Below, piece after piece: positions 4,324-48,683 of a stretch of 64,000 bases of DNA. The notes beneath the pieces are model-generated. The model was given only the letters and a program-made list of their open reading frames with translations. It had not been told where the DNA came from and made no database searches. Position 1 is the stretch's first letter; the number at the start of each line of letters is the position of its first letter. Source of the stretch: an uncultured Eubacteriales bacterium (GTDB lineage Bacteria; Acidobacteriota; Aminicenantia; Aminicenantales; Aminicenantaceae); contig CAYFXE010000001.1 of assembly GCA_964347035.1 (NCBI GenBank), positions 48,228 through 112,227 on the forward strand. Direction: 5' to 3'. The position numbers were made by a program, and so were the translations under genes.

Positions 4324-5781
4324 ATGAGAGGACAAAAACATTTAATTAAGATTGCCTTTGTTTTCATCCTTCTTGGTATTTTTTGCTGGAGTGCTGTTTT
4401 TGCCCAGAAGGGCCCCAAGGATAAATTTGTCTTTGGCCCGCTGAGCCCGATCAAGATGCCCAAGATAGAGAAGTTCGAGTTGGCAAACGGACTAAAGATC
4501 TTCTTGGTCGAGGATCATGAATATCCCACCATTGATCTTCGGGCCATGGTCCGCGTTGGCTCTGTTTTTGAACCTGCCTCAAAAATTGGCTTGGCTTCCG
4601 TTTGTGGACAGGTTATCCGGACAGGAGGAACAACATCCATGTCGGGGGATGAGATCGACAAAGAACTGGAGACTATGGCCGCCACGATTTCGACGAGTAT
4701 AGGCAGGATGTCCGGGGTCATTAATGTTTCCGTTCTGAAGGAAGATATCGACAGAGCCTTAGAGATCCTGGCTGACATCCTGATCAACCCTACTTTTGCG
4801 GAGGATAAAATTAGATTGGCTACGATCCAGCAGAGAACGATGATAGCCCGGCGTAACGATGATATAGGGCAGATCACAAACAGGGAATTTCGGAAGCTGA
4901 TTTATGGGCAGGATAGTCCATATGCCCGTCATCCCGAGTATGCTACGATTGATTCTGTCACCAGACAAGACATTGTCGATTTTTACCAAAAATATTTCTA
5001 TCCGAACAATACGATTATGGCTGTCTGGGGAGATTTCGGGACTGAAGAGATGGTGGACAAGCTCAAAAAGAATCTGGAGCCCTGGAAACAGGTTGAGGTG
5101 AGTATCACCCCTCCACCCAAGATTGATTATGATTACCAGTTCAAGGTCAACTATATCGACAAGCCGGATGTCAACCAGTCGAACATCATGATCGGCCATA
5201 TCGGGGGAATGATGAACAACCCTGACTACCCTGCACTGAGTGTCATGAACAGCATTCTTTCTTTTGATCGGATGTTCAAGAAGATAAGGACAGACGAGGG
5301 TCTGGCCTACAGTGTCTGGGGATACTATGGGGCCTACTTCACTTATCCCGGGGTTTTTTCGAGTGGTGCTCAGACGAAATCAGAGTCAACTGTCTATGCT
5401 ATCGACTTGATGCTTAAAGAGATGAGGCGGATGACAGAAGAGGAAGTGAGCGATGAGGAGCTGGCCAAGGCGAAAGACCAGTACTTAAATACTTATGTCT
5501 TTAATTTTGATAGCAAGGCGAAAATCGTCAACCGGTTGATGACCTATGTCTTATTTGATTATCCACTTGATTTTATGGATCAGGTTAAAAAGGGAGTCGA
5601 AAAAGTTACCAAGAAGGATGTCTTCAGAGTGGCCAAGGAATACCTTCGACCCGATAAGGTTCAGATTCTGGTCGTCGGAAAACAGGAAGATTTTGATAAG
5701 CCTCTATCAACTTTAGGTGAGGTTAATACGATCGATATAGAAATTCCACCTGCGAAGCCAAAGAAGCCACAGAAGAAATAA
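4324..5781 (+). CDS. M16 family peptidase homolog lacking HxxEH (non-catalytic partner), secreted
   Basis: 485 aa with an N-terminal signal peptide and the M16 fold pattern but no HxxEH motif. Lies immediately downstream of the catalytic M16 gene, the classic two-gene arrangement. Confidence 0.7.
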   Translation: MRGQKHLIKIAFVFILLGIFCWSAVFAQKGPKDKFVFGPLSPIKMPKIEKFELANGLKIFLVEDHEYPTIDLRAMVRVGSVFEPASKIGLASVCGQVIRTGGTTSMSGDEIDKELETMAATISTSIGRMSGVINVSVLKEDIDRALEILADILINPTFAEDKIRLATIQQRTMIARRNDDIGQITNREFRKLIYGQDSPYARHPEYATIDSVTRQDIVDFYQKYFYPNNTIMAVWGDFGTEEMVDKLKKNLEPWKQVEVSITPPPKIDYDYQFKVNYIDKPDVNQSNIMIGHIGGMMNNPDYPALSVMNSILSFDRMFKKIRTDEGLAYSVWGYYGAYFTYPGVFSSGAQTKSESTVYAIDLMLKEMRRMTEEEVSDEELAKAKDQYLNTYVFNFDSKAKIVNRLMTYVLFDYPLDFMDQVKKGVEKVTKKDVFRVAKEYLRPDKVQILVVGKQEDFDKPLSTLGEVNTIDIEIPPAKPKKPQKK

Positions 5782-6335: not shown

Positions 6336-8203
6336 CTATTTCTTTTTTAAGGACTTTAATGCTTCTTTTACTTCTTTTTCCTTTTCTCCTCCAAGATACA
6401 AATATCTTTCATAATGAGAGATGGCTTCCTTGATATATTTTTTATCCTGCAGGGATCTAGCTTGGTAGAGTTTTCCCAATTCATAATAGGGTTCGGGATC
6501 ACTGGCTTCTAATTCTATCGCGTTTTCATATTCTTTCAGTGCCAAGTCAGGTAAGCCTTTCTCGATGTATAACCTTCCCAAGAACTTGTGGCACCGAAAG
6601 GAAACAGGCCTACTCCGAACAACCAAAGATATCGAAAGTTGATTATCGGAGTTTCTTCTCTCTCCTTCGCTTTTTTTTCAGATTGAATCGCTCTTTTCCA
6701 TGCTGCCTCGGCATTATCTAAATCATTTAGTTCTTGGTAGGCACAACCCAGATTATAATGACCCATGGCATCTTCCGGGTGAATTTCGATGACTTTTTTA
6801 AAAGCTAAGATTGATTTTTTGAATTCTTTTTTCTTGAAGTATATCGTTCCCAAAGAATTATAGGCATCTAAAAAATAATTTCCTTCTTTTAATGCTGCCT
6901 CAAATGTCCATCGAGAAAGAGGAATTTGAGTCGGTTTTTGTTCTCTCTGCTCTTCCTTTCTCAAGATTTCTTGTTGTCTGTAAACAGGCATACTCCCGAA
7001 ATAACCCCTTCTCCTGAGGGCGATCAAGGCATGCCTTTCAGCCGATTTTAAAAAGTTGAGCCATGAATAGACCATGGCCGCATTAAAATTTATTATCGGC
7101 GACTCGGGATCGAGTTTTAACCCATGGCGGAATCTTGTTAGAGCCTGTTGAAATCTTCCCCTTCCGACAAATTCGAGACCGAGGTTATTGATATTATCCA
7201 GGACTGAGGACTTAGGATTCTTGAGTTGATACTGATATTCCATACCAGGATTATCTAAAAACTCTTTGGATAGTTCTATAATTTTGGGGCACTGCTCAGA
7301 TATTGATTCTTCATGCTCGGATGGATCGAGTTTTTTGAGACAGCAATCTGCATAGAGCTTCACTTCATCATTTTCGGGATCTATTTCTAGGATTCGCTTA
7401 AAGTATTCTGAAGCTTTTTCAAATTTGTTATAGTTGTAATTTATGCTTCCCAAGTTAAAAAGAGCATCTTGGAAGTTGGGATTGACTCTTAAAGCAGCCT
7501 CGAAGGATTCAATGGACCTACGTAAGAAGAAAAAATTCGATCCAGATTTCTCGTAATACCTCACTCCGTTTAAAACGAGGAATTCAGGTCGAGAACCATA
7601 TTCTTTAACAGCTTCGAATAAAACTGTTTCATGATCTGATTTTAATTGAAGTTCTGTCGCTGACTTTCTTTGGGAAAAATCAATATCTATCAACTGTGAA
7701 TAACATTTAACTGGATCATACTCTTTCTCCAGAGATCGTCTAAAATAGATTTTTGCCTTATCATACATCTCGATATTTTTAAAATACATACCTTGAATAA
7801 AGCAACCCAAACCGCCTATATGAGGATTGTCTTCTGTCAGTCTTCCAGATAGATCAAGCCTTTCTGGATATTCATTGGCTTCTTTTAGCTTATTCAACTT
7901 AGAGAGAATAAAAACTAAAAGATCATATGCATCCTCATTAGCCGGAAATAATGTCAGTTCTTCCTTAAGAAACTTCAGGGCATCATCAACCTTGCCCAGT
8001 TGAAAATAAGAGTATCCTAAATTTTTTCGTATATCTCTTTGGTTAGGTTTTTCTGTAAGGACTTTAAAGTAATTCTCAATAGCAAGCCGATATTCCATTA
8101 TGTCCAATAGGAGATCTGCTTCCTTGATAACCTCGTTTTGCTCTGGATGGGAAAATGAATAGAGTAAAAAGAGCGCGTGCATTAATGATATTGATTTTTT
8201 CAT
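6336..8203 (-). CDS. TPR-repeat protein; reading frame interrupted at a T8/A8 homopolymer (6670..6677)
   Basis: Two adjacent minus-strand ORFs (6536..8203 and 6336..6626) both encode TPR repeats. Adding one A in the A8 run joins them into one ~620 aa TPR protein (...SEKKSEGERRNSDNQLSISLVVRSRPVSFRCHKFLGRLYIEKG...). Confidence 0.6.
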
Positions 8204-8304: not shown

Positions 8305-9984
8305 ATGAAAAAATTATTAAGATGCAGGACAACATTCATTTTTCTCTTTATTTTCATTGTTTTTTCTGCAGTTTTGGCTGATGCGAAGATAGATAAAGTC
8401 GATAAGCTCTTTGCTCAGTGGGATAAACCAGATTCGCCCGGATGCGCTTTAGCCGTCATCAAGGATGGACGCATCATCTACAAAAAGGGCTACGGCTCAG
8501 CTAACCTGGAACATGACATTCAGATCACCCCCGAGAGCGTTTTTTATATCGGCTCGGTTTCTAAGCAGTTCGTGGCTTTCTGCATTGCTCTGTTAGTCCA
8601 GAAAGGGGAGCTCTCGTTAGATGATGACATCCGTAAATATGTTCCCGAACTCCCCGATTATGGGACACCGATAACCATCCGCCATCTCATCTATCACACC
8701 AGCGGCCTTCGTGATTACCTCGAGTTAGAAGGGATCGCTGGCATTCCGATTGGGGCGTATCATGAACAGGATGTCATTGACCTGATTGCACGACAGAAGG
8801 AGTTGAATTTCAAGCCAGGTGAACAATATATGTATAGCAATTCGGGGTATTTTCTCCTGGCTGTGATCGTGAAAAAAGCCACTGGCAAATCTCTTCGCCA
8901 ATTCGCAGACGAGAATATTTTCAAACCCCTGGGAATGAAAAACTCCCATTTTCACGATGATTACCGAAGACTTATAAAGAACAGAGCTGCTGGCTATTTC
9001 CCGGCCGGGAAAGGGAAATTCCGCAACTTTGTCTCCACCTTTGACTGCGTCGGATCCGGTGGTTTGTTCACTTCGGTGGAGGATCTTTATCGCTGGGACC
9101 AAAACTTCTACAATAAAAAAGTCGGAGGCAAGGAAGTGTTTGATCTGATGTATACTCAGGGAATACTGAACAGCGGCCAGAAGCTCGATTATGCCTTTGC
9201 GCTCGTCGTAGGCGATTATAAGGGATTAACAACGGTTGGGCATGGAGGTGCTTTGGGAGGATATAGATCTGCGCTTCTCCGCTTCCCAGAACAACAATTT
9301 TCCGTGATCTGTCTTTCCAACCTGAGCAGCTTTAACCCGATGGGCATAGCCCGGAAAATCGCGGATATTTATTTAGACGACCGATTTAAGCAGGAATCGA
9401 AGTCCAAAGCCGGTTTGAAAGGTGAACCTCAATATATCAAACTCCCTGAGAAAAAACTCAAGGAGAAGGTGGGAGCTTATATCGACCGTAAAACAGACGA
9501 TATTAGGATCATCTCATTCAGGGATGGCCGGTTAGTCATAGAAGCTCTAGTTAGGGCGTTTCCTTTGAAACCTGTCAGCGAGACAGAATTCCATGTTGTG
9601 GAGGCAGCCATCAAGGCCGCGATCAAATTTGAAAGGCAGAAGGGAGACAAGCCGTTGCTATTGCACGTCTATCCTGAAGGTAATAAACCCGAGACCTACG
9701 AAGCGTTCGCGTGGGTTAAACCTTCGCTTGAACAACTCAAAGAATATGAAGGAGATTATTTCAGCGAGGAACTTCAGGTGACATTCAAAATTGCTATCAA
9801 AAAGGCAAAACTGCGTTTTATCCATCGAAACGCCCCCGTTCCTCCACTCCGCCCCACACTTCAGGACAAATTCACGGTCAGCCGTTTCAAGATCCGGTTC
9901 TCCCGTGACGAGGAAAAGAAAATCACAGGCTTCAGGCTGGATGCGGGACGGGTCAAAAATCTCCGCTTCGATAAGGAATCGTAA
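8305..9984 (+). CDS. Beta-lactamase-fold serine hydrolase (peptidase S12 / PBP-like) with a ~200 aa C-terminal extension; secreted
   Basis: Signal peptide. SxxK active-site motif (GSVSKQF), YxN-like motif (YSNSGY) and HGG (GHGGALGG). The in-frame ATG at 8305 follows agaggag; the 5' extension from 8257 overlaps the promoter -10 TGcTTATAAT. Confidence 0.8.
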   Translation: MKKLLRCRTTFIFLFIFIVFSAVLADAKIDKVDKLFAQWDKPDSPGCALAVIKDGRIIYKKGYGSANLEHDIQITPESVFYIGSVSKQFVAFCIALLVQKGELSLDDDIRKYVPELPDYGTPITIRHLIYHTSGLRDYLELEGIAGIPIGAYHEQDVIDLIARQKELNFKPGEQYMYSNSGYFLLAVIVKKATGKSLRQFADENIFKPLGMKNSHFHDDYRRLIKNRAAGYFPAGKGKFRNFVSTFDCVGSGGLFTSVEDLYRWDQNFYNKKVGGKEVFDLMYTQGILNSGQKLDYAFALVVGDYKGLTTVGHGGALGGYRSALLRFPEQQFSVICLSNLSSFNPMGIARKIADIYLDDRFKQESKSKAGLKGEPQYIKLPEKKLKEKVGAYIDRKTDDIRIISFRDGRLVIEALVRAFPLKPVSETEFHVVEAAIKAAIKFERQKGDKPLLLHVYPEGNKPETYEAFAWVKPSLEQLKEYEGDYFSEELQVTFKIAIKKAKLRFIHRNAPVPPLRPTLQDKFTVSRFKIRFSRDEEKKITGFRLDAGRVKNLRFDKES

Positions 9985-37898: not shown

Positions 37899-40082
37899 CT
37901 AAATACGCCACCAGTAGGAAAACTTGATGAAGAAAAACCGGCCTTGAATCCGCCAGATTCCGGAATCGTCTCTTTCTTGGTTGTCGTCTACTCCGACGTA
38001 AAAGACTGTGCCAGGCCTGAGTTCATAGCTGAAGAGGAGGCTGTTGAAGATTTCTTTATGATAGCTATTATAATCCGTAATTAATCTCAAGGAGAGTGTG
38101 CGGGAAATCTGGTAGGTAATGCGTTGGCTGATGATATTCACCGTGTAGACTTTTTCACCGCCCTTGCTCCTGTAGAAATTATCATTCCTGAAATTATAAT
38201 GCAGGCGGAAGTTAGTGAGGGGCCTTAACGTTAAGCGGGATCCTTTGGATGTTTTATAGCCTAAATAAGGATCTTCCTCGTCGTCACCGTAATAAATGCC
38301 GTCACCCAAAGAAAAAGACACGTTTCCACTCAGCCAGGAAAAAGGCTCCGAGCTGAAACTGGACCGGAAAGAGTTTTTATAAAATTCTATACCTTCGTAA
38401 CGTTCCAGACCTGTGGAGAAATTCACCCATACGTAAGACCCCCTCCATCCACTCATGAACACCCGAAGCTCCCATTCCTCATCTGTCAGGATGTCATCAA
38501 AGTCATAGATTCTCCGGTACTCGATCGAGGGCCGGATATCGACGATGAAGTTTGTCTGAGGCAGGATTGCATAGCTCAGGCGGGAGTTGAAAGACCGGAT
38601 GTCCTTCCGGCGGAAAAAGCCCAGGGAGGCTTCAAAATCGGGAGGAATGTGCCTGTAATTAGCCGAGAAGCTCAGATGCCTGCCTCTTCGGTCAAGGTTA
38701 AACATCATCGCCGGAACCAGGTCGGTTTTTTCCGGGCCGACTTTACTCTGAGAACCGACAACCTGAAAGGAGAATCGATAGTTATTCAAGAATTTGAAGT
38801 GCCCGTCTAAACCTCCAACCCTGTTGAAGTTTTGTGTAATATTATTCCAGGAATCTCCCATCTCTTTATCTGCCAGGATAAATCCGACGTAGGATTCGGA
38901 GAAGAGGTCTTGTCTCAGGCGAAAAACATTCACAAGGCTTCTTCGTTTGATTTCCTCGTCATCGTCTTCATCTTCAGGAGAGATTTTAATGTCTGGTGCG
39001 TTTAAATCATAGGTGGTCAGAAAGCCTAGAGTGGTCTTTCCTATTTTCCCGGTGAGCTTCCCCCCCCATTGAGGGTCGATGATTTTTCGCGTATAAACCA
39101 ATTCAAAGGGTGTATCGAAATGGTCTGTTCCTTCTAGGAAAAAAGGCCTCTTTTCTGGATAGTAAAGGGCATACCTCTGGTTGACATCGATCTGAGGCAT
39201 ATCGGCCTCGACCTGGCTGAAATCCGGGTTGTAGGTGATGTCCGCTGTCAAATCCGATGTGATACCATACTTAAAGTTTATCCCTCCTTCGGGATCGAAT
39301 TTCTCATTTCTCTCTTGAAGACCCGTAAACACGGGCATAACTTCGAAGTTTTTTCCTTTTTCTAAGTTCCCATCGATGGTCAAAGTGCCCGATTGAACCA
39401 GGAACCCGTTCACATCGCGCGACCTTGGATACCAGTAGATTTCTTCATTTTTTCTTCGAATATTCCTCTTGATCTGCAGTCCCCAGAGCTGTGTTTGGGT
39501 ATTGGGAAATCTTAAGCTTTTAAACGGGATGGCCATTTCGACGGTATACCCCTCTTCATCAATGTAAGCGTCGGTGAGAAAAAAGGTATCCCAGTTCTTA
39601 TCGATCCTGTCAGGGCCTCCTCCGCGGCCCCTTCCTCTTCTCTGCGTTTCTAAATAAATGCCATCCGATTGCACACCACATGGATTGGCCAGGAAAGCAA
39701 AAGCACGCTTTTTGTCGTTGAAGGTATCCAGGTAAATAGTGACCTCGTCGTCCCCTTGAACATTATCTCTCTGGGTGAGACAGGCTCTGATGGCCTTCGG
39801 GTTGGAATCATAGCAGCGGAGAGCGATGTACAGGTTTTTATGGTCGTAGCCGAGGTAGGCGATTGTTTTTTCAGAGGGGTCTGTTCCCTCCTGGGGCTCG
39901 TACTGGGTGAAAGCCTCGAGGACCGCCCCCTTTTCCCAGAGAGGATTTTCCAGTTTCCCATCTATTTTAGGCGGAGAAGGAAACTTGGGGATCTTCACAT
40001 TATAATTATTGCCTTTTTTTTGGCCGACGAGGCAGAGAGGTGGTATCAAGAAGAAGACAAGAATGATCAAGATTTTTTTCAA
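37899..40082 (-). CDS. Outer-membrane protein, CBM9-like N-terminal domain + DUF5916-like beta-barrel
   Basis: Signal peptide; KIDGKLENPLWEKG... CBM9/DOMON-like start; 727 aa ending in aromatic FSYWWRI, typical of OM beta-barrels. Confidence 0.5.
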   Translation of the reverse strand: MKKILIILVFFLIPPLCLVGQKKGNNYNVKIPKFPSPPKIDGKLENPLWEKGAVLEAFTQYEPQEGTDPSEKTIAYLGYDHKNLYIALRCYDSNPKAIRACLTQRDNVQGDDEVTIYLDTFNDKKRAFAFLANPCGVQSDGIYLETQRRGRGRGGGPDRIDKNWDTFFLTDAYIDEEGYTVEMAIPFKSLRFPNTQTQLWGLQIKRNIRRKNEEIYWYPRSRDVNGFLVQSGTLTIDGNLEKGKNFEVMPVFTGLQERNEKFDPEGGINFKYGITSDLTADITYNPDFSQVEADMPQIDVNQRYALYYPEKRPFFLEGTDHFDTPFELVYTRKIIDPQWGGKLTGKIGKTTLGFLTTYDLNAPDIKISPEDEDDDEEIKRRSLVNVFRLRQDLFSESYVGFILADKEMGDSWNNITQNFNRVGGLDGHFKFLNNYRFSFQVVGSQSKVGPEKTDLVPAMMFNLDRRGRHLSFSANYRHIPPDFEASLGFFRRKDIRSFNSRLSYAILPQTNFIVDIRPSIEYRRIYDFDDILTDEEWELRVFMSGWRGSYVWVNFSTGLERYEGIEFYKNSFRSSFSSEPFSWLSGNVSFSLGDGIYYGDDEEDPYLGYKTSKGSRLTLRPLTNFRLHYNFRNDNFYRSKGGEKVYTVNIISQRITYQISRTLSLRLITDYNSYHKEIFNSLLFSYELRPGTVFYVGVDDNQERDDSGIWRIQGRFFFIKFSYWWRI

Positions 40083-40169: not shown

Positions 40170-41732
40170 TTAATTATTCAACATACTCGAAAAAGAAATG
40201 TTTTTTTCCTCCAGACTTATCCCCAGAGCCCTGTTTAAGCGAGCCAATGACAGGTTGTAGTCGATGATGGCCTTCAATTCCAAACTCTGAGCGTTGGCTA
40301 GGTCCCTCTGGTATTGGAGGACGAAATAGTTCGTGGTGAGTCCGACTTTCAGCTTCTCTTCCTCGGCTTCCAGTTTCTTTGCGGCCAACTCCCGCGCCAC
40401 TTTCCGGGCCTGAATCCGCTTAAAATTCGTTTCTACCCCCCGAAGAGCGTTCTTAATCTCAAGGAAAGCCTGTTGCTCCTGATTCTTGATCTGTAAAGTT
40501 GCTTGTTCCAGGTTGACTTTTGCCTGAGCATAAGCGGCGCGAGAGAGAAGTGTGCTGAAGGGGATAGAGAAAGTCAGGCCGACCGTCCAGTTGTTGAACT
40601 TGAAACTGAGGGCGTCCTTCAAGGCATTGGAAGCACCACCGGGAATCGTGTCCACAATCACTCCTGTCAGCGGGTTTCCGCCTTGGTATATGATTTGATC
40701 TCCTGAAATGCCTGGACTCCAGTAGGATGCTTGCAGGCTCAACTCAGGAAGAAGCTGATTCTTAGCATAACTGAGGTTGAGTTCTTTGTTCTTCAGGTCT
40801 ATCCTGGAGACCTGAAGGTCGGGTCGATTCTGTAGGGCAACGGCCAGAGCTTGATCAAGAGTCATGTCTTTTTTCACATAGCTAGGCTTGTCTGTGGGTA
40901 TGATCCTCAGAATCTCGGCATCCTCCTCATCGGCAGCGAGATTGATGATCGTTTTCAGAGCATCCTCGTTATTCTTGACCAGGGCCTCTGCCTCTAGGAT
41001 TTCGGCTTCGCGCGTGGCTACCTGCTCTTGGGCTGTCAGGATTTCAATCGGGGCCAGAGTGCCGACTTCCACCGCCCGCCTATTTTTTTCCAGCAGGTCT
41101 TGAGCCAATTTCAAGGACTGCTTAATGACTGTCAGGTTCTCGGTAGAATTGACGAGATTCCAGTAGGCCTCTTCCACGTTGTAGATCGTATCCTGAAGCG
41201 CTCTTTTATACTGGGTTTCGGAGATGTCGCTGTTATTGTGAGCGATCAGGATTTCTCTGCGGTTGATGTTAAGGCCAAAATTCTTGAGGATGGGCTGAGT
41301 AAAATTAAACCTCAGCGTTCCTCCGTAGCGAGGGTTGATGGTTTGGAAACTCCTGTTCGATTCGGTGGCGTAGCCCGTAAGGTTAATAGACAGGTTTCCC
41401 CCTGTGGGCAGGAGCTGGTTTATCTGAGCTGAATAGTCCGTCCTATCAGTCGTAACTTCTTTTGCTGCATCGAGGAACGAGTAGGAAGGCGAAATGTTAC
41501 TGTCTATACCATAGCTTAAAGAAAGCGAGGGCATGAATTTCTCTTTAGCTAGGGAGATTGAAATATCGGCCAGCTCAGGGGATAAGACTTCCACAGCCAG
41601 GCCGAGGTTGTTTTCCATCGCCTTCAGAATGCATTCCTCTAGGGAGAGGGAGATGGTTTTTTCCTGTTGGCCTTGAGAGACAGCGGCGAAAAAGAATACG
41701 GAGATAAAAATCCCGATGATGCGTTTATTCAT
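40170..41732 (-). CDS. TolC-family outer membrane efflux protein
   Basis: Signal peptide plus two repeated halves with coiled-coil segments, 520 aa. Confidence 0.8.
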   Translation of the reverse strand: MNKRIIGIFISVFFFAAVSQGQQEKTISLSLEECILKAMENNLGLAVEVLSPELADISISLAKEKFMPSLSLSYGIDSNISPSYSFLDAAKEVTTDRTDYSAQINQLLPTGGNLSINLTGYATESNRSFQTINPRYGGTLRFNFTQPILKNFGLNINRREILIAHNNSDISETQYKRALQDTIYNVEEAYWNLVNSTENLTVIKQSLKLAQDLLEKNRRAVEVGTLAPIEILTAQEQVATREAEILEAEALVKNNEDALKTIINLAADEEDAEILRIIPTDKPSYVKKDMTLDQALAVALQNRPDLQVSRIDLKNKELNLSYAKNQLLPELSLQASYWSPGISGDQIIYQGGNPLTGVIVDTIPGGASNALKDALSFKFNNWTVGLTFSIPFSTLLSRAAYAQAKVNLEQATLQIKNQEQQAFLEIKNALRGVETNFKRIQARKVARELAAKKLEAEEEKLKVGLTTNYFVLQYQRDLANAQSLELKAIIDYNLSLARLNRALGISLEEKNISFSSMLNN

Positions 41733-41841
41733 ATTTTCCTCCTAGATAATTTTCTTTTTTTACTCAACCATCACAAGTCATCATTAGAACAGTAAGAAAT
41801 AAAGCTTTTATTCGTACCTTAAGGCCTCAATTGGGTCGAGT

Positions 41842-42102
41842 TTAGAGGCCTTGCTTGATTGTGGAATTAAAGTTTGCATAGAGCTGTTCGATGCGGCCTG
41901 AGACCTGGCTTCCGACGTCGACGATGGTGACCGGATTAAGCGATCCTATAGTAACCACCATGGCTTGGATGTCCCCCTTCTCTATTGCCTCGTTTTTATA
42001 ATTTCTGGCCTTATCCTTGTTGCTATTGAAGAGCGTGAAACCTAGAACAATCCCCACGATGACGATAAAAACAACGATTTCGATGATGATTTTCTTATTC
42101 AT
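41842..42102 (-). pseudogene. N-terminal 86-aa fragment of a MacA/HlyD-type periplasmic adaptor (membrane fusion protein); rest of gene and cognate transporter absent
   Basis: ...GSLNPVTIVDVGSQVSGRIEQLYANFNSTIKQGL aligns to the MacA N-terminus (KVDVGAQVSGQLKTL...) and then stops. TolC follows 110 bp later with no ABC/RND gene between them. Confidence 0.55.
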
Positions 42103-42526
42103 TCGATTTCTTTCTAGGTTTTCTGTGGTTTCTTCGTTTGTTCATCTGTTCTTTCCTCTTTTGGAGGTATCTTTCAATCATGGCCTCGAATTTTGTCCTC
42201 TGCTCCTCAGTCAGGACGTTATTAATCTCGGTTTTCAAGTCCGATCTTATTTTCGAGATGCGCTCATGGATATGGCTTTTCAGCTTCTTTAGACTCTCTT
42301 CGTTATCGGCGAAGATTTGTCTGATCTGTTCCTGTTGTTCTGCGGATAGATCTAGCTCTTTAGCCATGATATCCAGCGTGGGAAATTCAACCGGCCGCCG
42401 ATCTCTTCTGGATCTCTTGGATTTTGTGGGAAAGATGTATTCATCTAGAAGAACCCCGGCCACACCGCCGACGATGAAGACGACGATGAAAGAGAGGATA
42501 ATCCAGAGTTTATAATTGTTTTTCAT
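42095..42526 (-). CDS. Spy/CpxP-family periplasmic chaperone-like protein with an N-terminal membrane anchor
   Basis: LTxxQ-type helical repeats (LSAEQQEQIRQI, LTEEQRTKFEAM); lies downstream of the anti-sigma factor. Confidence 0.6.
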   Translation of the reverse strand: MKNNYKLWIILSFIVVFIVGGVAGVLLDEYIFPTKSKRSRRDRRPVEFPTLDIMAKELDLSAEQQEQIRQIFADNEESLKKLKSHIHERISKIRSDLKTEINNVLTEEQRTKFEAMIERYLQKRKEQMNKRRNHRKPRKKSNE

Positions 42527-43020
42527 GGGATTTGTCTCCTTGTGCTGTCCTGCTCCTCCAAAGTGGAGAAGATGATCATCATGTTCTGGTCCTCCAATCT
42601 TTCATCAAGTAAAAGCTGGGTCTCCTCGAGAGGATTCAGGTTACGGAGGAGAAGCGCTTCGGACTGACTCAATTCCTGATCTTTAACTGGAAAGATACAG
42701 ATAATGGCAACGGCAATGATAAGGACGATAATCAGGGATGCGGGTACAGCCCGGAGACCCCATTGTTTGACAGAAGCCCAGAACGGCAAGCCTTGCCTTT
42801 CTTTGATTTTGGCCTGGAGGCGTTCCCAGAAATAGGGCTTCGGCTCTTGAGGTTTCTCTTGTCTCAAAAGACTGATGATGGTTCGGTATTCCTCTCTTGT
42901 CTCCTGGCATTCAGGACAGCTATTTATGTGTATCTCGATTTTCTTTTTTTCTTCCTCTGTCAACAGATTGTCGAAGGAGCGGAGTATCCATTTCTCGAAT
43001 TTTTTACAGCTCATACTCAC
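42523..43020 (-). CDS. Anti-sigma factor (zf-HC2) with a single TM
   Basis: HINSCPECQ zinc-finger motif and a single TM helix; translationally coupled to the upstream ECF sigma gene. Confidence 0.7.
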   Translation of the reverse strand: MSMSCKKFEKWILRSFDNLLTEEEKKKIEIHINSCPECQETREEYRTIISLLRQEKPQEPKPYFWERLQAKIKERQGLPFWASVKQWGLRAVPASLIIVLIIAVAIICIFPVKDQELSQSEALLLRNLNPLEETQLLLDERLEDQNMMIIFSTLEEQDSTRRQIP

Positions 43021-43571
43021 CTCCTTATATATGGCTCTATATTTTTTCGCAGCAATCGCCTCGCTCTGTGCAGGCGAGAATCGACAGTACCCGGAGAGAT
43101 CTTCAAGATTTTTGAGATTTCTCCGTAAGAAAGTTCTTGGATGTCTCTCAAGGAAATGATGATCTGGTATTTCTCTGGCAGGGTGCGAATGGCCTGGTGA
43201 ACTAGTGCTCTTCTCGCTATTTGTATTTTTTCTTTTTCTCTTTTTTTGACCTCGTCTTCTTGAGCAAAGGGATTCTCCTTGATGTCATCAATAGAAAGTT
43301 TGGGCATTCTCTCTTTTTTTCTCAGGTGATCCTTGATGAGGTTTATGGTAATGCGATAGAGCCAAGTGCCGAATTTTGATTTATATTTAAAACTCGACAG
43401 CCCAAAATAGGCCCTTATAAAGGCTTCTTGGGCAATATCATCGGCGGTTCCAGTATCTCTGGTTATGCTTAAGGCCATGTTAAATACCCTGTTCTTATAT
43501 TTCTCGACCAGCTGTCGGAAGGCGTCCTGATCTTCGTTTTTGCTCCTTTGAACGAGCTCTTTTTCTTCCAT
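43017..43571 (-). CDS. ECF (sigma-24 type) RNA polymerase sigma factor
   Basis: Region 2 (DIAQEAFIRAY, FGTWLYRIT) and region 4 HTH (LSYGEISKILKISPGTVDSRL). Confidence 0.85.
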   Translation of the reverse strand: MEEKELVQRSKNEDQDAFRQLVEKYKNRVFNMALSITRDTGTADDIAQEAFIRAYFGLSSFKYKSKFGTWLYRITINLIKDHLRKKERMPKLSIDDIKENPFAQEDEVKKREKEKIQIARRALVHQAIRTLPEKYQIIISLRDIQELSYGEISKILKISPGTVDSRLHRARRLLRKNIEPYIRR

Positions 43572-43605
43572 ATCCTTTCACGTTGTCTTGACCTCCGTCT
43601 ATTGT

Positions 43606-43633
43606 TTAGACGGAGGAAAAGAAGAAATCTTCC
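43606..43633 (-). promoter_or_regulatory. Putative ECF-type promoter GGAAGAT-N15-GTCTAA upstream of the sigma factor gene
   Basis: On the minus strand, GGAAGAT (43633..43627) and GTCTAA (43611..43606) resemble sigma-E-type GGAACTT/TCTGA elements. The -10 sits inside a 10 bp perfect palindrome cctccgtcta/tagacggagg (43589..43613). Confidence 0.4.
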
Positions 43634-43726
43634 TTTACAGGGGATGCTTCTATTATGTTTATAAAAGAAAAGTTTAACGTATAAAAGTTTTCTTTGAAAG
43701 GGGAAAAAAGGATCTGATTATAAAAA

Positions 43727-44101
43727 TCAGGTGGTTTTTTTCGTTCCTTCCCATGAACTGGCACCAAAGGAACCGAATTGGACCTCGCCCGACATCGTGT
43801 CGCCTTCCACTTCTCCGCTCCAGGTCATAGTCATTTCTCCTCTAGGCGTTTCGCGGGTTATCGTCCATTCGATCTTGTTGCCGGTGATCGTGCCCTCTCC
43901 AGCGGTCTCTCCGCGCTGGCTAGTCATGGTCACCGTCAGTGTGCTACCTTCCTGTTCAAAGTGGACATCCCAAGTCATTTCCCCCCTTTGGGTGCTGACA
44001 GTAATTTCCCAGTCGCCCCTGACATCTGTGTCCAGGGCCATAGAAGAAAGGGAGAAGAAGGCCAAAAAGAGAACTGCTGGGAGTACCAATAATCTGTTCA
44101 T
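43727..44101 (-). CDS. Small secreted protein with internal duplication (RGEMT repeats)
   Basis: Signal peptide and two repeats (...STQRGEMTWDV... / ...ETPRGEMTMTWSG...). No known domain recognised. Confidence 0.5.
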   Translation of the reverse strand: MNRLLVLPAVLFLAFFSLSSMALDTDVRGDWEITVSTQRGEMTWDVHFEQEGSTLTVTMTSQRGETAGEGTITGNKIEWTITRETPRGEMTMTWSGEVEGDTMSGEVQFGSFGASSWEGTKKTT

Positions 44102-44136
44102 GTTAATCTCCTTCTGTATTATAATTGATTTTATTA

Positions 44137-44165
44137 TTAGACGGTTAATTTCAGCCTTATCTTCC
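44137..44165 (-). promoter_or_regulatory. Second copy of GGAAGAT-N16-GTCTAA motif upstream of the small secreted protein gene
   Basis: On the minus strand, GGAAGAT (44165..44159) and GTCTAA (44142..44137), followed by TATAAT-like and aaggag RBS elements. Confidence 0.4.
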
Positions 44166-44427
44166 CCAAAAAAAATTTTTTTGCTGGATGCAGCTGTACA
44201 GATGTGTTTTTAATCTGATTTATCCTTGCATTTCACTATTCGTCATAAACATGGCTAAGCTATCTTAGCGCCATTAAAGATGAGAAGGCTACCGTCTCAT
44301 TATAATGGTTCTTTGAGTGGAAAAGAGTCCTCTATCACAGAAATAGATATGCTTATTCCTCGTCACTTATCCTTGACAATCCCTCTGGACTTTACTTTAA
44401 TATATCCTCTCAAAAGGAACATTATTG

Positions 44428-44736
44428 ATGTTTGTTTGGGTTTTCCATCGGATTAGCGGCCTTTTGCTCATCCTCCTCCTAGGCATCAAAATCACAACAG
44501 CTCTCTTCCTGATGACAAAGGAACAGAAACCCGACTGGGCTTTGGTCCTCCACACTAACTCCATTATCGATGTCTTGCTCATTATTTCCGTCGTGGCTCA
44601 TGCGCTGTACGGCCTGCGGACCGTAATCATCGATCTCGGTGTCCGGAAAGAAAAATTGCTCTTTTGGGTATTCTCTCTCCTCATCGTTGTCTTCAGTGCC
44701 GTACTTCTGATCTTTTATTTTACCAGGAATTACTGA
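44428..44736 (+). CDS. sdhC: Succinate dehydrogenase/fumarate reductase membrane anchor (single small heme-b subunit)
   Basis: Three TM helices with conserved His residues (FHRISG, VAHALYG); sits immediately upstream of sdhA. Confidence 0.65.
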   Translation: MFVWVFHRISGLLLILLLGIKITTALFLMTKEQKPDWALVLHTNSIIDVLLIISVVAHALYGLRTVIIDLGVRKEKLLFWVFSLLIVVFSAVLLIFYFTRNY

Positions 44737-46434
44737 ATGATCGACCAGGACATCCTCGTTGTTGGGGGTGGATTGGCAGGCTTGGCCGCTGCACTCACCA
44801 GTGATGCGAACCTTCGAACAGCTGTCGTCTCCAAGGTCCATCCTCTCCGCTCTCACTCTGTCGCGGCTCAAGGTGGAATCAACGCGGCCCTGGCAAACAA
44901 TCCAGATGGCAAAGACGACAGCTGGGAGAGGCATGCTTTTGACACCATCAAAGGGAGTGATTATCTGGCTGACCAGAGTGCTGCCGAGTTGATGTGCCAG
45001 GAAGCCATCCCTACGATCTATGATTTGGAGCATCTCGGGGTACCTTTCAGCCGCTTTCCGGGGGGAGTTATCGCTCAGAGACCTTTCGGCGGCGCTGGTT
45101 TTCCCCGCACCTGTTATGCAGCCGATCGAACGGGACTAGTGATTCTCCATACTCTTTTCGAACAGGCCGTGAAAAAAAGAATCGAATTTTATAACGAGTG
45201 GCTGGTGACCAAACTTGTCATCAGAGATGGAAAATGTCTGGGAGTCGTCATCTTCGACCTCACCACAGGACAGGTCATGCCGATAAGAGCCCGAGCTGTC
45301 ATCTTCGCCACCGGCGGTTACGGGAGAGTCTATTCGAGGACAACCAATTCCTTCATCAACCACGGCAGCGGTATCGCGATTGCCTACCGGGCCGGAGTTG
45401 CGTTGAAGGATATGGAATTTGTCCAGTTTCATCCCACATCTCTTTTCCCCAAAAACATCCTGATCACAGAGGGAGCGCGGGGAGAAGGAGGTTATCTTCT
45501 CAATAACAAGGGGAAGAGGTTTATGGAGGACTATGCTCCCTCAGCCATGGAACTCGCCCCGCGCGACATCGTGGCCCGTGCTCTTCAGACCGAGATCGAT
45601 AAAGGGCATGGGTTTGAAGAGCAGTATGTCCATCTGGACTTGAGACATCTGGGCGAGGCGAAGCTCAATAAGAGGCTTCCAGCTATCCGAGAAATCTGTA
45701 TCCATTTTGCCGGGATCGACCCCGTTGATAAACCCATTCCTATCCAGCCTGCTCAACATTATTCCATGGGAGGCATCGATGTCGATAAGACATGTGCTTC
45801 AGCGGTCAGGGGATTTTATGCTGCAGGGGAGTGTGCTTGTGTCAGTGTCCATGGAGCCAATCGCCTCGGTGGGAATTCTCTGCTAGAAACTGTTGTCTTC
45901 GGACGGATTGCAGGAGAGGAGGCATCCCGTTATGTGCACGGAAGCGAAGGGGGCGAAGAGGCTGAAAAGATTCTCCTTGAGGAGGCCTTGGAAATCAAGA
46001 GCAGGGTCGATAAGTGGAGGAAGATAGAAGACGGGTGGAAGATCCATCTCCTGCTCAACAAGCTGAAAATAATCATGAGCGATAAAGTGGGAATTTTTCG
46101 GAGCAAAGAAGACTTAAGACATGCCTTAAAGGAAATTCAGGGACTGAGACAGGACTACAGCCAGGTTTATGTTTCGGGAGATTGCCTGAGGTATAGCCAA
46201 GAACTCGTGAATATCTTCGAGTTCGAATCCATGCTTGACCTGGCGGAGGTGATCACTCTGGGAGCCCTGAACAGGGAGGAAACACGAGGATCCCATTATC
46301 GCCTTGATTTCCCCAAAAGGGATGATTCCAATTGGCTTAAACACTCCTTGGTCTCCTGGAAAGACGGCCAACCTCGAATCGATTACCGAGATGTCAAAAT
46401 CGAAAAATACAAACCTGAGGAGAGAAAATACTGA
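44737..46434 (+). CDS. sdhA: Succinate dehydrogenase/fumarate reductase flavoprotein subunit
   Basis: FAD motif DILVVGGGLAGLAAA; covalent FAD His in RSHSVAAQGG; 565 aa. Confidence 0.9.
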   Translation: MIDQDILVVGGGLAGLAAALTSDANLRTAVVSKVHPLRSHSVAAQGGINAALANNPDGKDDSWERHAFDTIKGSDYLADQSAAELMCQEAIPTIYDLEHLGVPFSRFPGGVIAQRPFGGAGFPRTCYAADRTGLVILHTLFEQAVKKRIEFYNEWLVTKLVIRDGKCLGVVIFDLTTGQVMPIRARAVIFATGGYGRVYSRTTNSFINHGSGIAIAYRAGVALKDMEFVQFHPTSLFPKNILITEGARGEGGYLLNNKGKRFMEDYAPSAMELAPRDIVARALQTEIDKGHGFEEQYVHLDLRHLGEAKLNKRLPAIREICIHFAGIDPVDKPIPIQPAQHYSMGGIDVDKTCASAVRGFYAAGECACVSVHGANRLGGNSLLETVVFGRIAGEEASRYVHGSEGGEEAEKILLEEALEIKSRVDKWRKIEDGWKIHLLLNKLKIIMSDKVGIFRSKEDLRHALKEIQGLRQDYSQVYVSGDCLRYSQELVNIFEFESMLDLAEVITLGALNREETRGSHYRLDFPKRDDSNWLKHSLVSWKDGQPRIDYRDVKIEKYKPEERKY

Positions 46435-46435
46435 G

Positions 46436-47161
46436 ATGGTCTACACCTTTAGAATTCTCAGGTGCGATCCCCTGAAGGATGAACAGCCTTATTTTCAGGA
46501 TTTTTCTTACGAGACAACGGAGGAGAAATCCATCCTGGAAGCCTTGATGGACATCCGGAATGAGCAGGATTGTACCCTTTCCTTTAGATACAGTTGCCGA
46601 GAAGCCATCTGTGGTTCTTGTGGCCTGGTGATTAACGGTGAGTTTGACCTTGCCTGCCGAGCCGGACTCGGCTCTCTCAGGTCTCCTCTGGTTCACGTAG
46701 AACCCCTTCCCAACTTAGAGATCGAGAAGGATCTGGTAGTCAACATGGATCCCTTTTGGGAAGCTTTGTATAAGGTTGAACCCTACCTCCATGCTAGCCA
46801 GGAGTCTCCTGAGAAAGAGCATCTTATAGAAGACAAAGAAATGGACAAAATCCTCCAATACATCAACTGCATTTTATGTGGCTGCTGTTACAGTGCCTGT
46901 CCTGTGGCTTCCCGAGACGAAAGATACTTAGGACCGGCGGCCCTTGCCAAGCTCTACCGTTTGGTGAGAGATCCTCGGGATCAGAGGGCTTTCTCCAGTT
47001 GGTCGGAGGTCAATACAGAGGGCGGTGTCTGGGGATGTGATACCGTATTCAGGTGTAACGAGGTCTGCCCTAAAGACGTCAGGCCGGCCGACGGGATTGA
47101 AGCGTTGAGACGAAAACTTATCATCGAAAAAATCAAGCGGCTCTTTAGATTCAGTAAATGA
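46436..47161 (+). CDS. sdhB: Succinate dehydrogenase iron-sulfur subunit
   Basis: 2Fe-2S CREAICGSCG and 4Fe-4S/3Fe-4S CILCGCCYSACP...CNEVCP motifs. Start placed at MVYTF, 1 nt after the sdhA stop. Confidence 0.85.
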   Translation: MVYTFRILRCDPLKDEQPYFQDFSYETTEEKSILEALMDIRNEQDCTLSFRYSCREAICGSCGLVINGEFDLACRAGLGSLRSPLVHVEPLPNLEIEKDLVVNMDPFWEALYKVEPYLHASQESPEKEHLIEDKEMDKILQYINCILCGCCYSACPVASRDERYLGPAALAKLYRLVRDPRDQRAFSSWSEVNTEGGVWGCDTVFRCNEVCPKDVRPADGIEALRRKLIIEKIKRLFRFSK

Positions 47162-47607
47162 AACTTAAATACTCTCTTTTTACTCGACGCCAATTTTTGA
47201 ACGGCCTGCTGGGCGGTTGGCTAGCGGCTTTGCTGGGATCTTTTCTGTACCCGATCATAAAGTTTGTTTTCCCTCCGTACAGAGAGCCAGATCAAGTCAT
47301 CCTGCCCTTATCTGATTATAAGGACATACCCTCTAACTCGGTGAAAAAATTTCCTTGGGGAAGTAAACCTGGCCTGGTAAAGAAGAACGAGGACGGCTCC
47401 TTCTTGGCCTTTGTGGCGATCTGTACCCACTTGGACTGCAATGTCGCCTACCTGCCGGAACAGAAAAGATTTTTCTGTGCCTGTCATGACGGGTGGTATG
47501 ATGAGCAGGGAATAAACATCGGAGGACCCCCTCCCCGGCCTCTACGACGTCTCGGGATCGCGGTCGAGGGAGAGGATCTGATTATAAAGAAAGAGGGATC
47601 GGAGTGA
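47158..47607 (+). CDS. Rieske [2Fe-2S] protein with Tat signal
   Basis: RRQFLNGLLG Tat motif; box I CTHLDC and box II CACHDG. Confidence 0.8.
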   Translation: MKLKYSLFTRRQFLNGLLGGWLAALLGSFLYPIIKFVFPPYREPDQVILPLSDYKDIPSNSVKKFPWGSKPGLVKKNEDGSFLAFVAICTHLDCNVAYLPEQKRFFCACHDGWYDEQGINIGGPPPRPLRRLGIAVEGEDLIIKKEGSE

Positions 47608-48683
47608 GCAATAGAAGCAAAAAGCCGGGACCAGCTCGTTGGTTTGAAGAACGCCTCGGCCTAACCAGCCTAACCCGTTTTTTAACAGAGAAGACAGTCC
47701 CTCAGCATAAACACTCCATCTGGTATTACACGGGGAGTGCGATTCTGTTGTTTTTCTCGATTCAGGTCGTTACCGGCTTTATTCTCCTTTTCTACTTCAA
47801 GCCCACCCTAGAAAAAGCCAACGAAAGTGTGGGTCGGATCATGACCGAAGTCCCTCTGGGGTGGATCCTGCGTTCGGTTCATTTCTGGTCGTCGACATTC
47901 ATGATCGCTATCGTTTTCATCCATCTGATGAGCATCTGGTTTACCAAAAGCTACCGCAAACCTCGGGAGTTGACCTGGATGAGTGGGGTGTTCCTCCTGA
48001 TCGTGTCCCTGGCCTTCGGGTTTACGGGCTATCTCCGGCCCTGGGATGATCTATCTGTTTCAGCCACCAAAGTCGGCACTGATATTCCCCGCTCTATTCC
48101 CGTCGTGGGCGCCTGGGCGACCAAGTTTCTCCGGGGTGGAGAAGACGTGACCGGAGACACGCTGACGCGCTTTTTTGGCTTTCATGTCTGTATCCTTCCT
48201 CTGTTTACCCTGTTTTTGATCGGAATTCACGTCTACTTCATCCAAAAACAGGGGATCAGTCTTCCTCTCAGAGCGGAAATCAGGAACGAAAAAGTGAAGG
48301 AACTTCCTTTCTGGCCCAATTTTGTCTACAGGGAGATGATTGTTTGGCTCATCCTTCTGGGTATTCTTATCACTCTGTCCATCTTTTTTCCTCCATCGTT
48401 AGACAAAGCAGCGGATTTGATGGCCCCGGCTCCGGAGGGAATCAAGCCCGAGTGGTATTTTCTGTTCCTGTTCCAGACTCTGAAGATTTTCCCAGCGCAT
48501 ATCCTCTTCGTCAGTGGAGATACGTTGGCTGCGCTGTTAATTTTGCTTTTCGGGGGCTTTTTTTTCTTTTTGCCTCTTATCGATAATAGACCTCAAGAGA
48601 AGAAAGGGAAAGCCATCACTCTCATCGCCATCGTCTTCCTGATATATGCGGTCGCTATGAGTGTCTGGAGCCTTATGGAATGA
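47604..48683 (+). CDS. Cytochrome b (bc/b6f-type, fused N- and C-terminal domains)
   Basis: Conserved heme-ligand His residues in TM helices (SVHFWSSTFM, FHVCILP) and PEWY motif (KPEWYFLF). Confidence 0.8.
   Translation: MSNRSKKPGPARWFEERLGLTSLTRFLTEKTVPQHKHSIWYYTGSAILLFFSIQVVTGFILLFYFKPTLEKANESVGRIMTEVPLGWILRSVHFWSSTFMIAIVFIHLMSIWFTKSYRKPRELTWMSGVFLLIVSLAFGFTGYLRPWDDLSVSATKVGTDIPRSIPVVGAWATKFLRGGEDVTGDTLTRFFGFHVCILPLFTLFLIGIHVYFIQKQGISLPLRAEIRNEKVKELPFWPNFVYREMIVWLILLGILITLSIFFPPSLDKAADLMAPAPEGIKPEWYFLFLFQTLKIFPAHILFVSGDTLAALLILLFGGFFFFLPLIDNRPQEKKGKAITLIAIVFLIYAVAMSVWSLME

Follow-up and report, generated by a model that had tools for sequence, protein, structure and literature searches.

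Predicted promoters of an ECF sigma factor operon and a small secreted protein in Aminicenantes, with a conserved inverted repeat at the sigma factor promoter

Genes and shared promoter motif at the locus

A 64,000-nucleotide stretch of contig CAYFXE010000001.1 (GenBank assembly GCA_964347035.1, Aminicenantales; hereafter the window) encodes a sigma factor of the extracytoplasmic function (ECF) type, of 184 amino acids, on its minus strand. The sigma factor gene is preceded by a gene for a secreted protein of 124 amino acids (sec124) and followed by genes for an anti-sigma factor, a CpxP/Spy-like periplasmic protein, a MacA stub and a TolC-like protein (Table 1). The same bipartite motif was found upstream of the sigma factor gene and of sec124. 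Both copies are probably promoters read by this sigma factor, and the copy at the sigma factor gene overlaps a conserved inverted repeat.

An exact scan of the window for GGAAGAT-N14-17-GTCTAA yielded two matches, both on the minus strand. One was located upstream of the sigma factor gene (43633..43606, spacer of 15 nt; P_sig) and the other upstream of sec124 (44165..44137, spacer of 16 nt; P_sec). The mean number of matches in dinucleotide shuffles was 0.03, and at least two matches were reached in 0 of 100 shuffles. GTCTAA was preceded by C at both sites, giving a -10 element of CGTCTAA. The minus strand reads aaaGGAAGATttcttcttttcctcCGTCTAAacaatagacggagg at P_sig, with the sigma factor ATG at 43571, and ggGGAAGATaaggctgaaattaacCGTCTAAtaataaaatc at P_sec, with the sec124 ATG at 44101; the -10 elements end 34 and 36 nt before the respective ATG. 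With up to two mismatches, four matches were obtained in all, compared with 3.2 in shuffles, and the additional two (8645..8617 and 7964..7938) were rejected as intragenic and at chance level. The first-pass annotation, made from the sequence of the window, had noted this shared motif and its resemblance to sigmaE-type -35 and -10 elements, and both observations held.

For comparison, approximately 25 loci from about ten lineages were collected (loci are designated by L numbers). All sigma factor orthologues with readable upstream sequence carried cGGAAGATTTtc...CCTCCGTCTAAA, and the P_sig motif was retained in L001-L004, L082-84, L161, L162, L164, L166-171, L174, L176 and L178. In 15 aligned loci, GGAAG-N16-CGTCTAA preceded the sigma factor's own gene, as in autoregulated ECF promoters, with G as a variant fifth base of the -35 element. 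Among 13 loci in which the distance between the -10 element and the ATG was measured, it was 34 nt in 11 (L004 had 35 nt and L164 had 37 nt); by reading, L174, L176 and L178 had 32-34 nt. The P_sec motif was retained in L002, L082-84, L162, L164, L166, L170, L172-174, L176 and L178, with the consensus GGAAGA[T/G/A]-N14/15-CGTC[T/C/A]AA, unrelated spacers and 5' untranslated regions (5'UTRs) of varying length. Across loci, the sites were 29-90 nt from the start codon, and no further site was found in the collected loci with up to one mismatch. Both sites had the same position, orientation and spacing in approximately ten diverged Aminicenantes lineages (sigma factors about 43-63% identical), and the intergenic flanks had changed. 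Most ECF homologues with less than 45% identity were without the motif, and a few had a generic GGAAC-N-CGTCTAA.

Two sec124 homologues extended this observation. The homologue in L173 (L173:4001-4372, 45% identical) had no sigma factor gene nearby and retained the motif, as GGAAGTT-N13-CGTCTAAA (L173:3943-3969) just upstream of the gene. The homologue in L172 likewise carried it. In L173, the gene is located after aro, chorismate mutase and prephenate dehydrogenase genes and before a gene for an 899-aa protein without a Pfam domain, and GACGGA downstream of the site is complementary to the site's own -10 element. In L163, runs of N coincided exactly with both promoter regions (L163:3863-3956 and 4599-4702); as this scaffold is interrupted by six gaps within 8 kb, they were considered an assembly artefact.

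Table 1. Predicted genes and sequence elements at the sigma factor locus (coordinates of the window)
Feature	Position	Strand	Basis or remark
P_sec -35, GGAAGAT	44159..44165	minus	exact motif match; GGAAGA[T/G/A] kept upstream of sec124 orthologues
P_sec -10, CGTCTAA	44137..44143	minus	CGTC[T/C/A]AA conserved; ends 36 nt before ATG
sec124, 124 aa, signal peptide and predicted 8-stranded up-and-down beta-barrel	43727..44101	minus	open reading frame
CATAAT box, candidate housekeeping -10 upstream of P_sig	43652..43657	minus	inferred
P_sig -35, GGAAGAT	43627..43633	minus	15 aligned loci, GGAAG unchanged or almost unchanged
P_sig -10, CGTCTAA	43606..43612	minus	invariant in 15 aligned loci; ends 34 nt before sigma factor ATG
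Inverted repeat CCTCCGTCTA / AACAA / TAGACGGAGG, 10-bp arms, 5-nt loop	43592..43616	minus	perfect in the window
GGAGG, Shine-Dalgarno-like	43592..43596	minus	about +4..+8 of predicted P_sig transcript
Out-of-frame upstream open reading frame, GTG start 43581, 28 codons, overlaps sigma factor start	43495..43581	minus	GTG 10 nt before sigma factor ATG
ECF sigma factor, 184 aa	43017..43571	minus	Pfam Sigma70_r2 and r4_2
Anti-sigma factor, N-terminal zf-HC2 and one transmembrane segment	42523..43020	minus	Pfam; weak RsrA match
CpxP/Spy-like (Metal_resist/LTXXQ) periplasmic protein, N-terminal membrane anchor	42095..42526	minus	overlaps anti-sigma factor stop codon
MacA (HlyD-family adaptor) N-terminal stub, 86 aa	41842..42102	minus	left by macAB deletion
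TolC-like outer-membrane efflux protein	40170..41732	minus	Pfam OEP, 1.6e-52; 110-nt gap
DUF5916/CBM9 protein	37899..40082	minus	Pfam

Sigma factor and fit to known promoter rules

The sigma factor contained Sigma70_r2 (residues 21-88) and Sigma70_r4_2 (residues 123-174) and neither region 1.1 nor region 3, as is characteristic of ECF sigma factors, and scored 122.7 bits against TIGR02937 (sigma70-ECF; cutoff 42.9). Together with the zf-HC2 domain of the downstream protein, this confirmed the initial assignment of the two genes as sigma and anti-sigma factor. The best NCBIfam matches of the sigma factor were SigW and RpoE, both under the equivalog cutoffs, and SigW was also a top match in the PDB. 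It was not an RpoE equivalog (TIGR02939, 137.9 bits versus a cutoff of 236.15), and the downstream genes were of the zf-HC2, LTXXQ-like and efflux types; nor was it a SigW equivalog (NF007223, 149.4 versus 209; TIGR02948, 132.7 versus 243.1). Its closest homologues were 52-63% identical, all in Aminicenantes (OP8) metagenome-assembled genomes or sediment and groundwater metagenomes. No second ECF sigma factor gene was detected among the other sigma-sized open reading frames (ORFs; 170-215 aa) tested in the window.

For Thermoanaerobacter tengcongensis RpoE1, an essential CGTC at -13..-10 is recognised through a DXXR motif of region 2.4, and CGTC-type -10 regions were also noted for SigW, SigX, SigM and others (PMC3397946). 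Region 2.4 of the sigma factor described here contained a DXXR motif (D81-H-L-R84) that aligned with DRIR of SigW. Based on the rule that CGTC occupies -13..-10, the transcription starts were predicted at approximately 43599 (P_sig) and 44130 (P_sec). The GGAAG-N16-CGTC spacing (N17 at P_sec of the window) was canonical for ECF promoters. For the -35 element GGAACTT of Escherichia coli, R176, S172 and R171 of sigmaE read -35G, -34G and -31C (PMC3397946). S165 and R169 of the sigma factor aligned with AlgU residues homologous to the G-contacting S172 and R176, and D164 replaced the arginine that contacts -31C in RpoE and AlgU. The corresponding sigma4 segment was GTVDSRLHR, versus GTVRSRIFR in AlgU and GTVKTR in SigW, and GTVDSR was present in the translations of all orthologues that use GGAAG. 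An aspartate in place of the C-reading arginine would fit GGAAG instead of GGAAC.

Inverted repeat and upstream start codon at P_sig

The first-pass annotation had placed a perfect 10-bp palindrome over the -10 element of the sigma factor gene, which was confirmed at 43616..43592 with a loop of 5 nt. Inverted repeats with a stem of at least 10 bp and a loop of 3-8 nt occurred twice in the 64 kb, versus 0.4 expected. The second one, perfect over 10 bp with a 7-nt loop (40791..40817), is located inside the tolC-like gene and is consistent with chance. The left arm of the repeat at P_sig consists of the end of the promoter spacer and the -10 element, and the right arm (ACGGAGG) begins at the predicted transcription start. 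In the aligned loci, conservation of the right arm (T[A/G]nACGGAGG) was close to that of the promoter boxes. No P_sec spacer contained the CCTCC found before CGTCTAA at P_sig, and the promoter therefore does not need it. The earlier description of the -10 element as buried in the palindrome captured a real overlap, but the palindrome is itself a conserved element, tied to GGAGG and an upstream start codon.

In RNA folding predictions with 37-nt segments, a hairpin formed in 14 of 15 loci, with free energies of -10 to -20 kcal/mol and z-scores of -2.5 to -6.2. The stem was often longer, with the T-rich spacer paired to purine-rich bases downstream. Only GCCUCC/GGAGGC was kept in L176, with a longer loop, and in L004 the right arm was another one, AGAUGG, paired with CCGUCU. 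Where only one side of the core stem had changed, U.G pairs remained in every case, either by C to U in the left arm (L161, L162, L174, L002) or by A to G in the right arm (L170, L178). Paired cells amounted to 78.7-81.5%, versus 35-53% in slid controls. An intrinsic terminator was rejected: the stem is followed by UCAAGACAACG and no U-tract, it was not called by the terminator scan, and the orthologues were alike in this respect. An antisense ECF promoter on the plus strand, with the right arm as its -10 element, was also rejected, as no GGAA-type -35 element was present at the right distance. At gathering thresholds, no Rfam family matched anywhere in the window, and a search of 43400-44450 that admitted matches up to E of 5 gave only chance-level ones (E of at least 0.23).

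GGAGG was kept in 12 of the 15 aligned loci; L170 had GGAGT and L004 CGGGA, and in L176 it was shifted by one column. An ATG, GTG or TTG was present at -10 or -13 from the sigma factor ATG in 13 of 16 loci, 7-10 nt after GGAGG and always in the same non-sigma frame. Other offsets were almost empty. The probability of such a codon by chance was approximately 0.11 per locus, and for its presence in 8 or more of 11 conservatively counted lineages P was about 2e-6. Since the upstream codon was out of frame (-10/-13) in all loci, an N-terminal extension of the sigma factor was rejected. In the window, the codon opens the upstream open reading frame (uORF) given in Table 1. In most loci, the sigma factor ATG was without a good Shine-Dalgarno (SD) sequence. 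The predicted probability of GGAGG being unpaired was approximately 0 in long transcripts. In short transcripts, starting at P_sig, GGAGG sometimes paired with the GCCUUC codons of a conserved (D/E)AF motif.

Long transcripts might arise in two ways. In most loci, sec124 and P_sig had no canonical terminator between them, which makes read-through from sec124 plausible, and the read-through RNA of the window was predicted to be strongly structured (z = -5.3). In this predicted RNA, the T/C tract paired with purine-rich sequence around the start of the sigma factor gene. Right after the sec124 stop codon (43704..43730, minus strand), a 6-bp AT-rich stem (CTGATT/AATCAG) is followed by ATCC and six T; apart from the window, only L161 had this weak terminator-like signal. 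In addition, 15 of 16 loci, versus 5.4 in shuffles, had a TAnAAT or CATAAT box, often TAAAATAG, at most 65 nt upstream of the P_sig -35 element. It was located 13-50 nt upstream of the -35 element, no convincing -35 of its own was seen, and it was not called by the sigma70 scan. The box may be a housekeeping -10 element through which the sigma factor operon is expressed at a basal level. The promoter scan called no sigma70-like promoter on the minus strand within 41700-44500.

Operon genes and the secreted protein

The anti-sigma factor gene is located directly downstream of the sigma factor gene, as expected of a cognate anti-sigma factor, and was syntenic in all related loci. Its likely start is the ATG at 43014, 6 nt after AAGGAGG and 3 nt past the sigma factor stop codon; a start at GTG 43020 would overlap. 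The protein encoded next had been labelled Spy/CpxP-like. This label was partly upheld: similarity to Metal_resist, LTXXQ and Spy was found, but the scores for the Pfam families were just below the cutoffs (Metal_resist, 28.2 versus 29.2; LTXXQ, 22.3 versus 24.3) and Spy NF007769 scored 24.7 versus 174. The protein is a borderline relative, under the threshold for the LTXXQ family. Its gene was syntenic in all related loci.

After the MacA stub, another frame contained a permease-tail remnant (...KLDPIEALRYE*; stub and remnant at 41810..42102, minus strand), which we take to be a typical FtsX/MacB permease C-terminus. A deletion of approximately 3 kb had removed macA, macB (ATPase) and macB (permease) in the window. 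The same deletion junction was present in L161 (L161:6066-6368), where it is in frame and forms a fusion ORF of 100 aa, and L001 was without any stub. Since L161 shares the junction and other relatives keep the full pump, the deletion is considered genuine and common to a sub-lineage, with tolC left as an orphan behind the sigma factor operon. Complete macA-macB-macB was found in L162, L164, L166, L168, L170, L176 and L178. Farther downstream, relatives whose contig extended that far carried macA and macB, and tolC followed directly in L001 and L161, both without macAB. The genes from the sigma factor to the stub form one operon, as start and stop codons overlap or nearly do so, and the TolC-like gene is probably the distal gene of this operon. 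The order of sec124, sigma factor, anti-sigma factor and CpxP-like genes was kept wherever the contig covered it, except in L003 and L004 (no sec124) and L173 (no sigma factor). A succinate dehydrogenase cluster (sdhC-sdhA-sdhB-Rieske-cytochrome b; 44425..48683, plus strand), assigned from ORFs and syntenic annotation, is divergent from the sec124 promoter region. It was syntenic with the sigma factor locus in most relatives; L164, L170, L174 and L178 had other neighbours.

The sec124 gene has a strong SD sequence (GAAGGAGA-N5-ATG), which was kept in orthologues. The sec124 family comprised approximately 89 clusters without a Pfam domain, named only as 'hypothetical protein' in Aminicenantales, and an exact look-up of the window's own sec124 protein gave no record. 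An AlphaFold model built with 47 homologues had a pLDDT of 86.8 and consisted of a hydrophobic N-terminal helix (the signal peptide) followed by eight antiparallel strands. Foldseek searches of the PDB returned weak matches only (E of at least 1e-3), all up-and-down barrels: a quinohemoprotein amine dehydrogenase domain, FABP/CRBP, avidins and the NHBA C-domain. According to the model, the protein is a small calycin-like periplasmic barrel, which plausibly binds a ligand. In one clade (L001:~1740-1760, L002:~395-410, L083:~3320-3335), the sec124 5'UTR had an insertion of about 44 nt with a small palindrome (GATGCGnnCGCATC), which was absent from the window, L082 and L084. The sec124 promoter of L170 (L170:3924-3975; the same in L171) resembled the sigma factor promoter of other lineages, with a T/C-rich spacer, CGTCTAAATGATATACGGAA and a partial right arm. 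This likeness suggests that one site arose from the other by promoter duplication, or that conversion took place between them.

Discussion

The ECF sigma factor encoded at 43571..43017 is likely to read both sites as promoters; based on the sequence comparisons, we estimate the probability at approximately 0.8. The core of this reading is an ordinary self-activating ECF design. ECF sigma factors commonly autoregulate and need near-consensus promoters, and large-scale identification of ECF promoters has relied on the logic of conservation (PMC7776599). P_sig would drive the sigma factor, the zf-HC2 anti-sigma factor, the CpxP/Spy-like protein, the macA stub and probably tolC, and P_sec would drive the adjacent secreted beta-barrel protein. 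The sigma factor would thus activate its own synthesis, restrained by the co-transcribed anti-sigma factor, and an envelope signal that frees it from the membrane anti-sigma factor would induce both units together. That this sigma factor reads the motif, and the inducing signal, are inferred. Autoregulation and a small local regulon of sigma factor, anti-sigma factor, Spy/CpxP-like protein and secreted protein had been proposed in the first-pass annotation; conservation at both genes in relatives agrees with this, but the operon runs past the CpxP-like gene.

The fifth base of the -35 element, G, departs from the GGAAC/AAC consensus and speaks against this assignment. As most ECF promoters have C at this position, the motif might be read by another ECF sigma factor encoded elsewhere, or might be a bipartite transcription factor site. 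We consider either very unlikely: the motif accompanies this sigma factor gene in about ten lineages at a fixed distance to the ATG, its orientation, 16-17-nt spacing and start-codon distance of 29-90 nt are promoter-like, and the DXXR motif and the arginine-to-aspartate change in sigma4 fit it. Moreover, the distant ECF homologues (<45% identical) were mostly without the motif, and no second ECF sigma factor gene was among the sigma-sized ORFs tested in the window. Only two copies were found and each half is a short 7-mer, as a chance repeat without function might be, but with 0.03 matches expected, no shuffle of 100 reaching two, and conservation at orthologous positions between diverged flanks, chance is refuted for practical purposes.

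The inverted repeat may add a second layer to the self-activating design. In the mechanism we propose, GGAGG would be hidden in the folded hairpin of mRNAs started upstream, by read-through from P_sec or at the TAnAAT box. Only such RNAs can form the hairpin, since the predicted start of P_sig lies between the arms; mRNAs started at P_sig would lack the left arm and expose the GGAGG of the uORF. The promoter of origin could in this way set translation around the sigma factor start and tune the ratio of sigma to anti-sigma factor, which would be its most probable purpose, although we hold the proposal as a whole to be unlikely. P_sig would then contain a promoter-embedded translational switch acting as a built-in brake or booster on the ECF positive feedback, a reading that is likewise unlikely. 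Several observations weigh against this second layer. The hairpin was missing in L164, and L003, L004 and L164 were without a start codon at -10 or -13. Neither the length nor the end of the uORF was conserved (10-34 codons, ending inside the sigma factor gene). In short transcripts, the probability of GGAGG being unpaired ranged from 0 to 0.99 by locus, so that it was free in only some, and the scan found no clear sigma70 promoter upstream of P_sig. A clear SD sequence was present in only 24 of 46 ORFs of the window; because about half of them are without one, the weak SD of the sigma factor gene is not itself unusual, which weakens the argument that GGAGG must serve it. Covariation was not significant for the core or the extended hairpin (two-sided changes in only one or two pairs, often matched by shuffles) and the left arm is constrained anyway as the -10 element, for which reasons an RNA structure cannot be proven.

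The palindrome could instead be a DNA operator, where a dimeric repressor bound across the -10 element and the start would block the ECF promoter and GGAGG and the start codon would be incidental. Its perfect symmetry in the window and L003, nearly reached in L161, and its 10-5-10 geometry covering -10 to about +8 would suit such a site, as would the conservation of both arms beyond the need of a promoter, judged from P_sec, and the lack of significant RNA-type covariation. Most loci are symmetric over 7 bp only, however, with an 11-nt gap, and L176 and L004 keep complementarity but not half-site sequence or register. The one-sided changes are of the G.U type, which is relevant to RNA and not to a protein half-site, the conserved gene cluster encodes no DNA-binding regulator, and the start codon conserved 7-10 nt after GGAGG would be unexplained. 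We regard an operator as unlikely. It is more doubtful still that the hairpin acts only in the sec124 read-through RNA, as a terminator-like, processing or 3'-end-stabilising element that would set the strongly expressed sec124 message apart from the sigma factor operon, without a link to sigma factor translation. Read-through is plausible in most loci for want of a canonical terminator between sec124 and P_sig, free energies of -10 to -20 kcal/mol make for a stable stem, and the strong structure of the window's read-through RNA (z = -5.3) points the same way. Yet a U-tract follows the stem in no locus, and the hairpin is kept in L003, L004 and loci of the L174/L178 type, which have another upstream neighbour or no sec124. 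This explanation also leaves the upstream start codon and the fixed distance of 34 nt unaccounted for.

The predicted circuit resembles that of E. coli sigmaE, an ECF sigma factor that is co-transcribed with a membrane anti-sigma factor and activates its own GGAA...(G)TCTAA-type promoter; functions of the periplasm and the outer membrane belong to its envelope-stress regulon, and a leader ORF stands before the sigma factor gene (PMC3326320, PMC8595263). The sigmaE-dependent rpoE promoter is of the GGAACTT-N16-TCTAA type, and the operon is headed by the leader peptide rseD (rseD-rpoE-rseA-rseB-rseC) (PMC8595263). Unlike in E. coli, the sigma factor described here is not an orthologue of sigmaE, the anti-sigma factor is of the zf-HC2 type and not RseA, RseB and RseC are absent, and a -35 element of GGAAG is combined with aspartate in place of the C-reading arginine. 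The rseD leader is coupled to rpoE, and the out-of-frame, overlapping uORF is dissimilar: it ends 10-34 codons on, inside the sigma factor gene, not at the sigma factor start. To our knowledge, a promoter-embedded hairpin has not been described for rpoE, and no description of a promoter-embedded anti-SD sequence at an ECF promoter was found in the open-access literature.

Bacillus subtilis SigW, SigX and SigM and T. tengcongensis RpoE1 share the CGTC -10 element, DXXR in region 2.4, a 16-17-nt spacer and autoregulation with the present system (PMC3397946). Their promoters have an AAC -35 and a CGTC or CGTA -10 element (PMC3397946), whereas the -35 sequence, the anti-sigma factor architecture and the regulon differ here and the sigma factor is below the SigW equivalog cutoff. 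Streptomyces sigmaR-RsrA is similar in its zf-HC2/ZAS-type anti-sigma factor, to which the weak RsrA match corresponds, and in that the promoter of origin alters what the sigma factor gene yields in translation, as is proposed here. The sigR gene has two promoters and two isoforms, and the sigma-dependent promoter gives the longer mRNA and an N-terminally extended isoform. In contrast, the sigma-dependent transcript would be the shorter one here, SD accessibility would differ, and the anti-sigma factor is membrane-bound. In Pseudomonas aeruginosa uof-pqsR, a uORF with a structure-occluded ribosome-binding site controls pqsR (PMC8395346). The likeness lies in a short uORF before a regulator gene, with an SD sequence that can be sequestered by a complementary segment upstream (PMC8395346). 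There, the small RNA PhrS opens the structure and coupling is positive, whereas the switch proposed here would be the choice of transcription start. Lastly, the operon of relatives, consisting of a Metal_resist/LTXXQ protein, macA, macB (ATPase), macB (permease) and tolC, resembles MacAB-TolC combined with CpxP/Spy/ZraP. In the window, however, macAB is reduced to a stub, and the LTXXQ protein falls slightly short of the Pfam cutoffs and carries a membrane anchor at its N-terminus.

The core design, in which an ECF sigma/anti-sigma operon is autoregulated from a bipartite promoter close to consensus and a small neighbour is co-regulated, is already very well known. What is new is modest: the Aminicenantes lineage, the exact motif, the pairing of GGAAG with aspartate, the sec124 family as a target and the conserved hairpin with its upstream start codon. 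The promoter motif tGGAAGAt-N14/15-CGTCTAAA is well supported, and with it Aminicenantes (candidate division OP8), a phylum without a cultured model, would have a first ECF sigma factor regulon. This predicted regulon consists of a lineage-specific secreted beta-barrel protein and an operon of sigma factor, anti-sigma factor, CpxP-like protein and MacAB-TolC, and the motif is directly usable to scan Aminicenantes genomes and metatranscriptomes. The change from arginine to aspartate in sigma4, paired with the change from C to G in the -35 element, would be a natural data point for the specificity code of ECF sigma factors. If the hairpin and the upstream start codon are functional, they would illustrate how an ECF circuit can curb its own feedback through translation.

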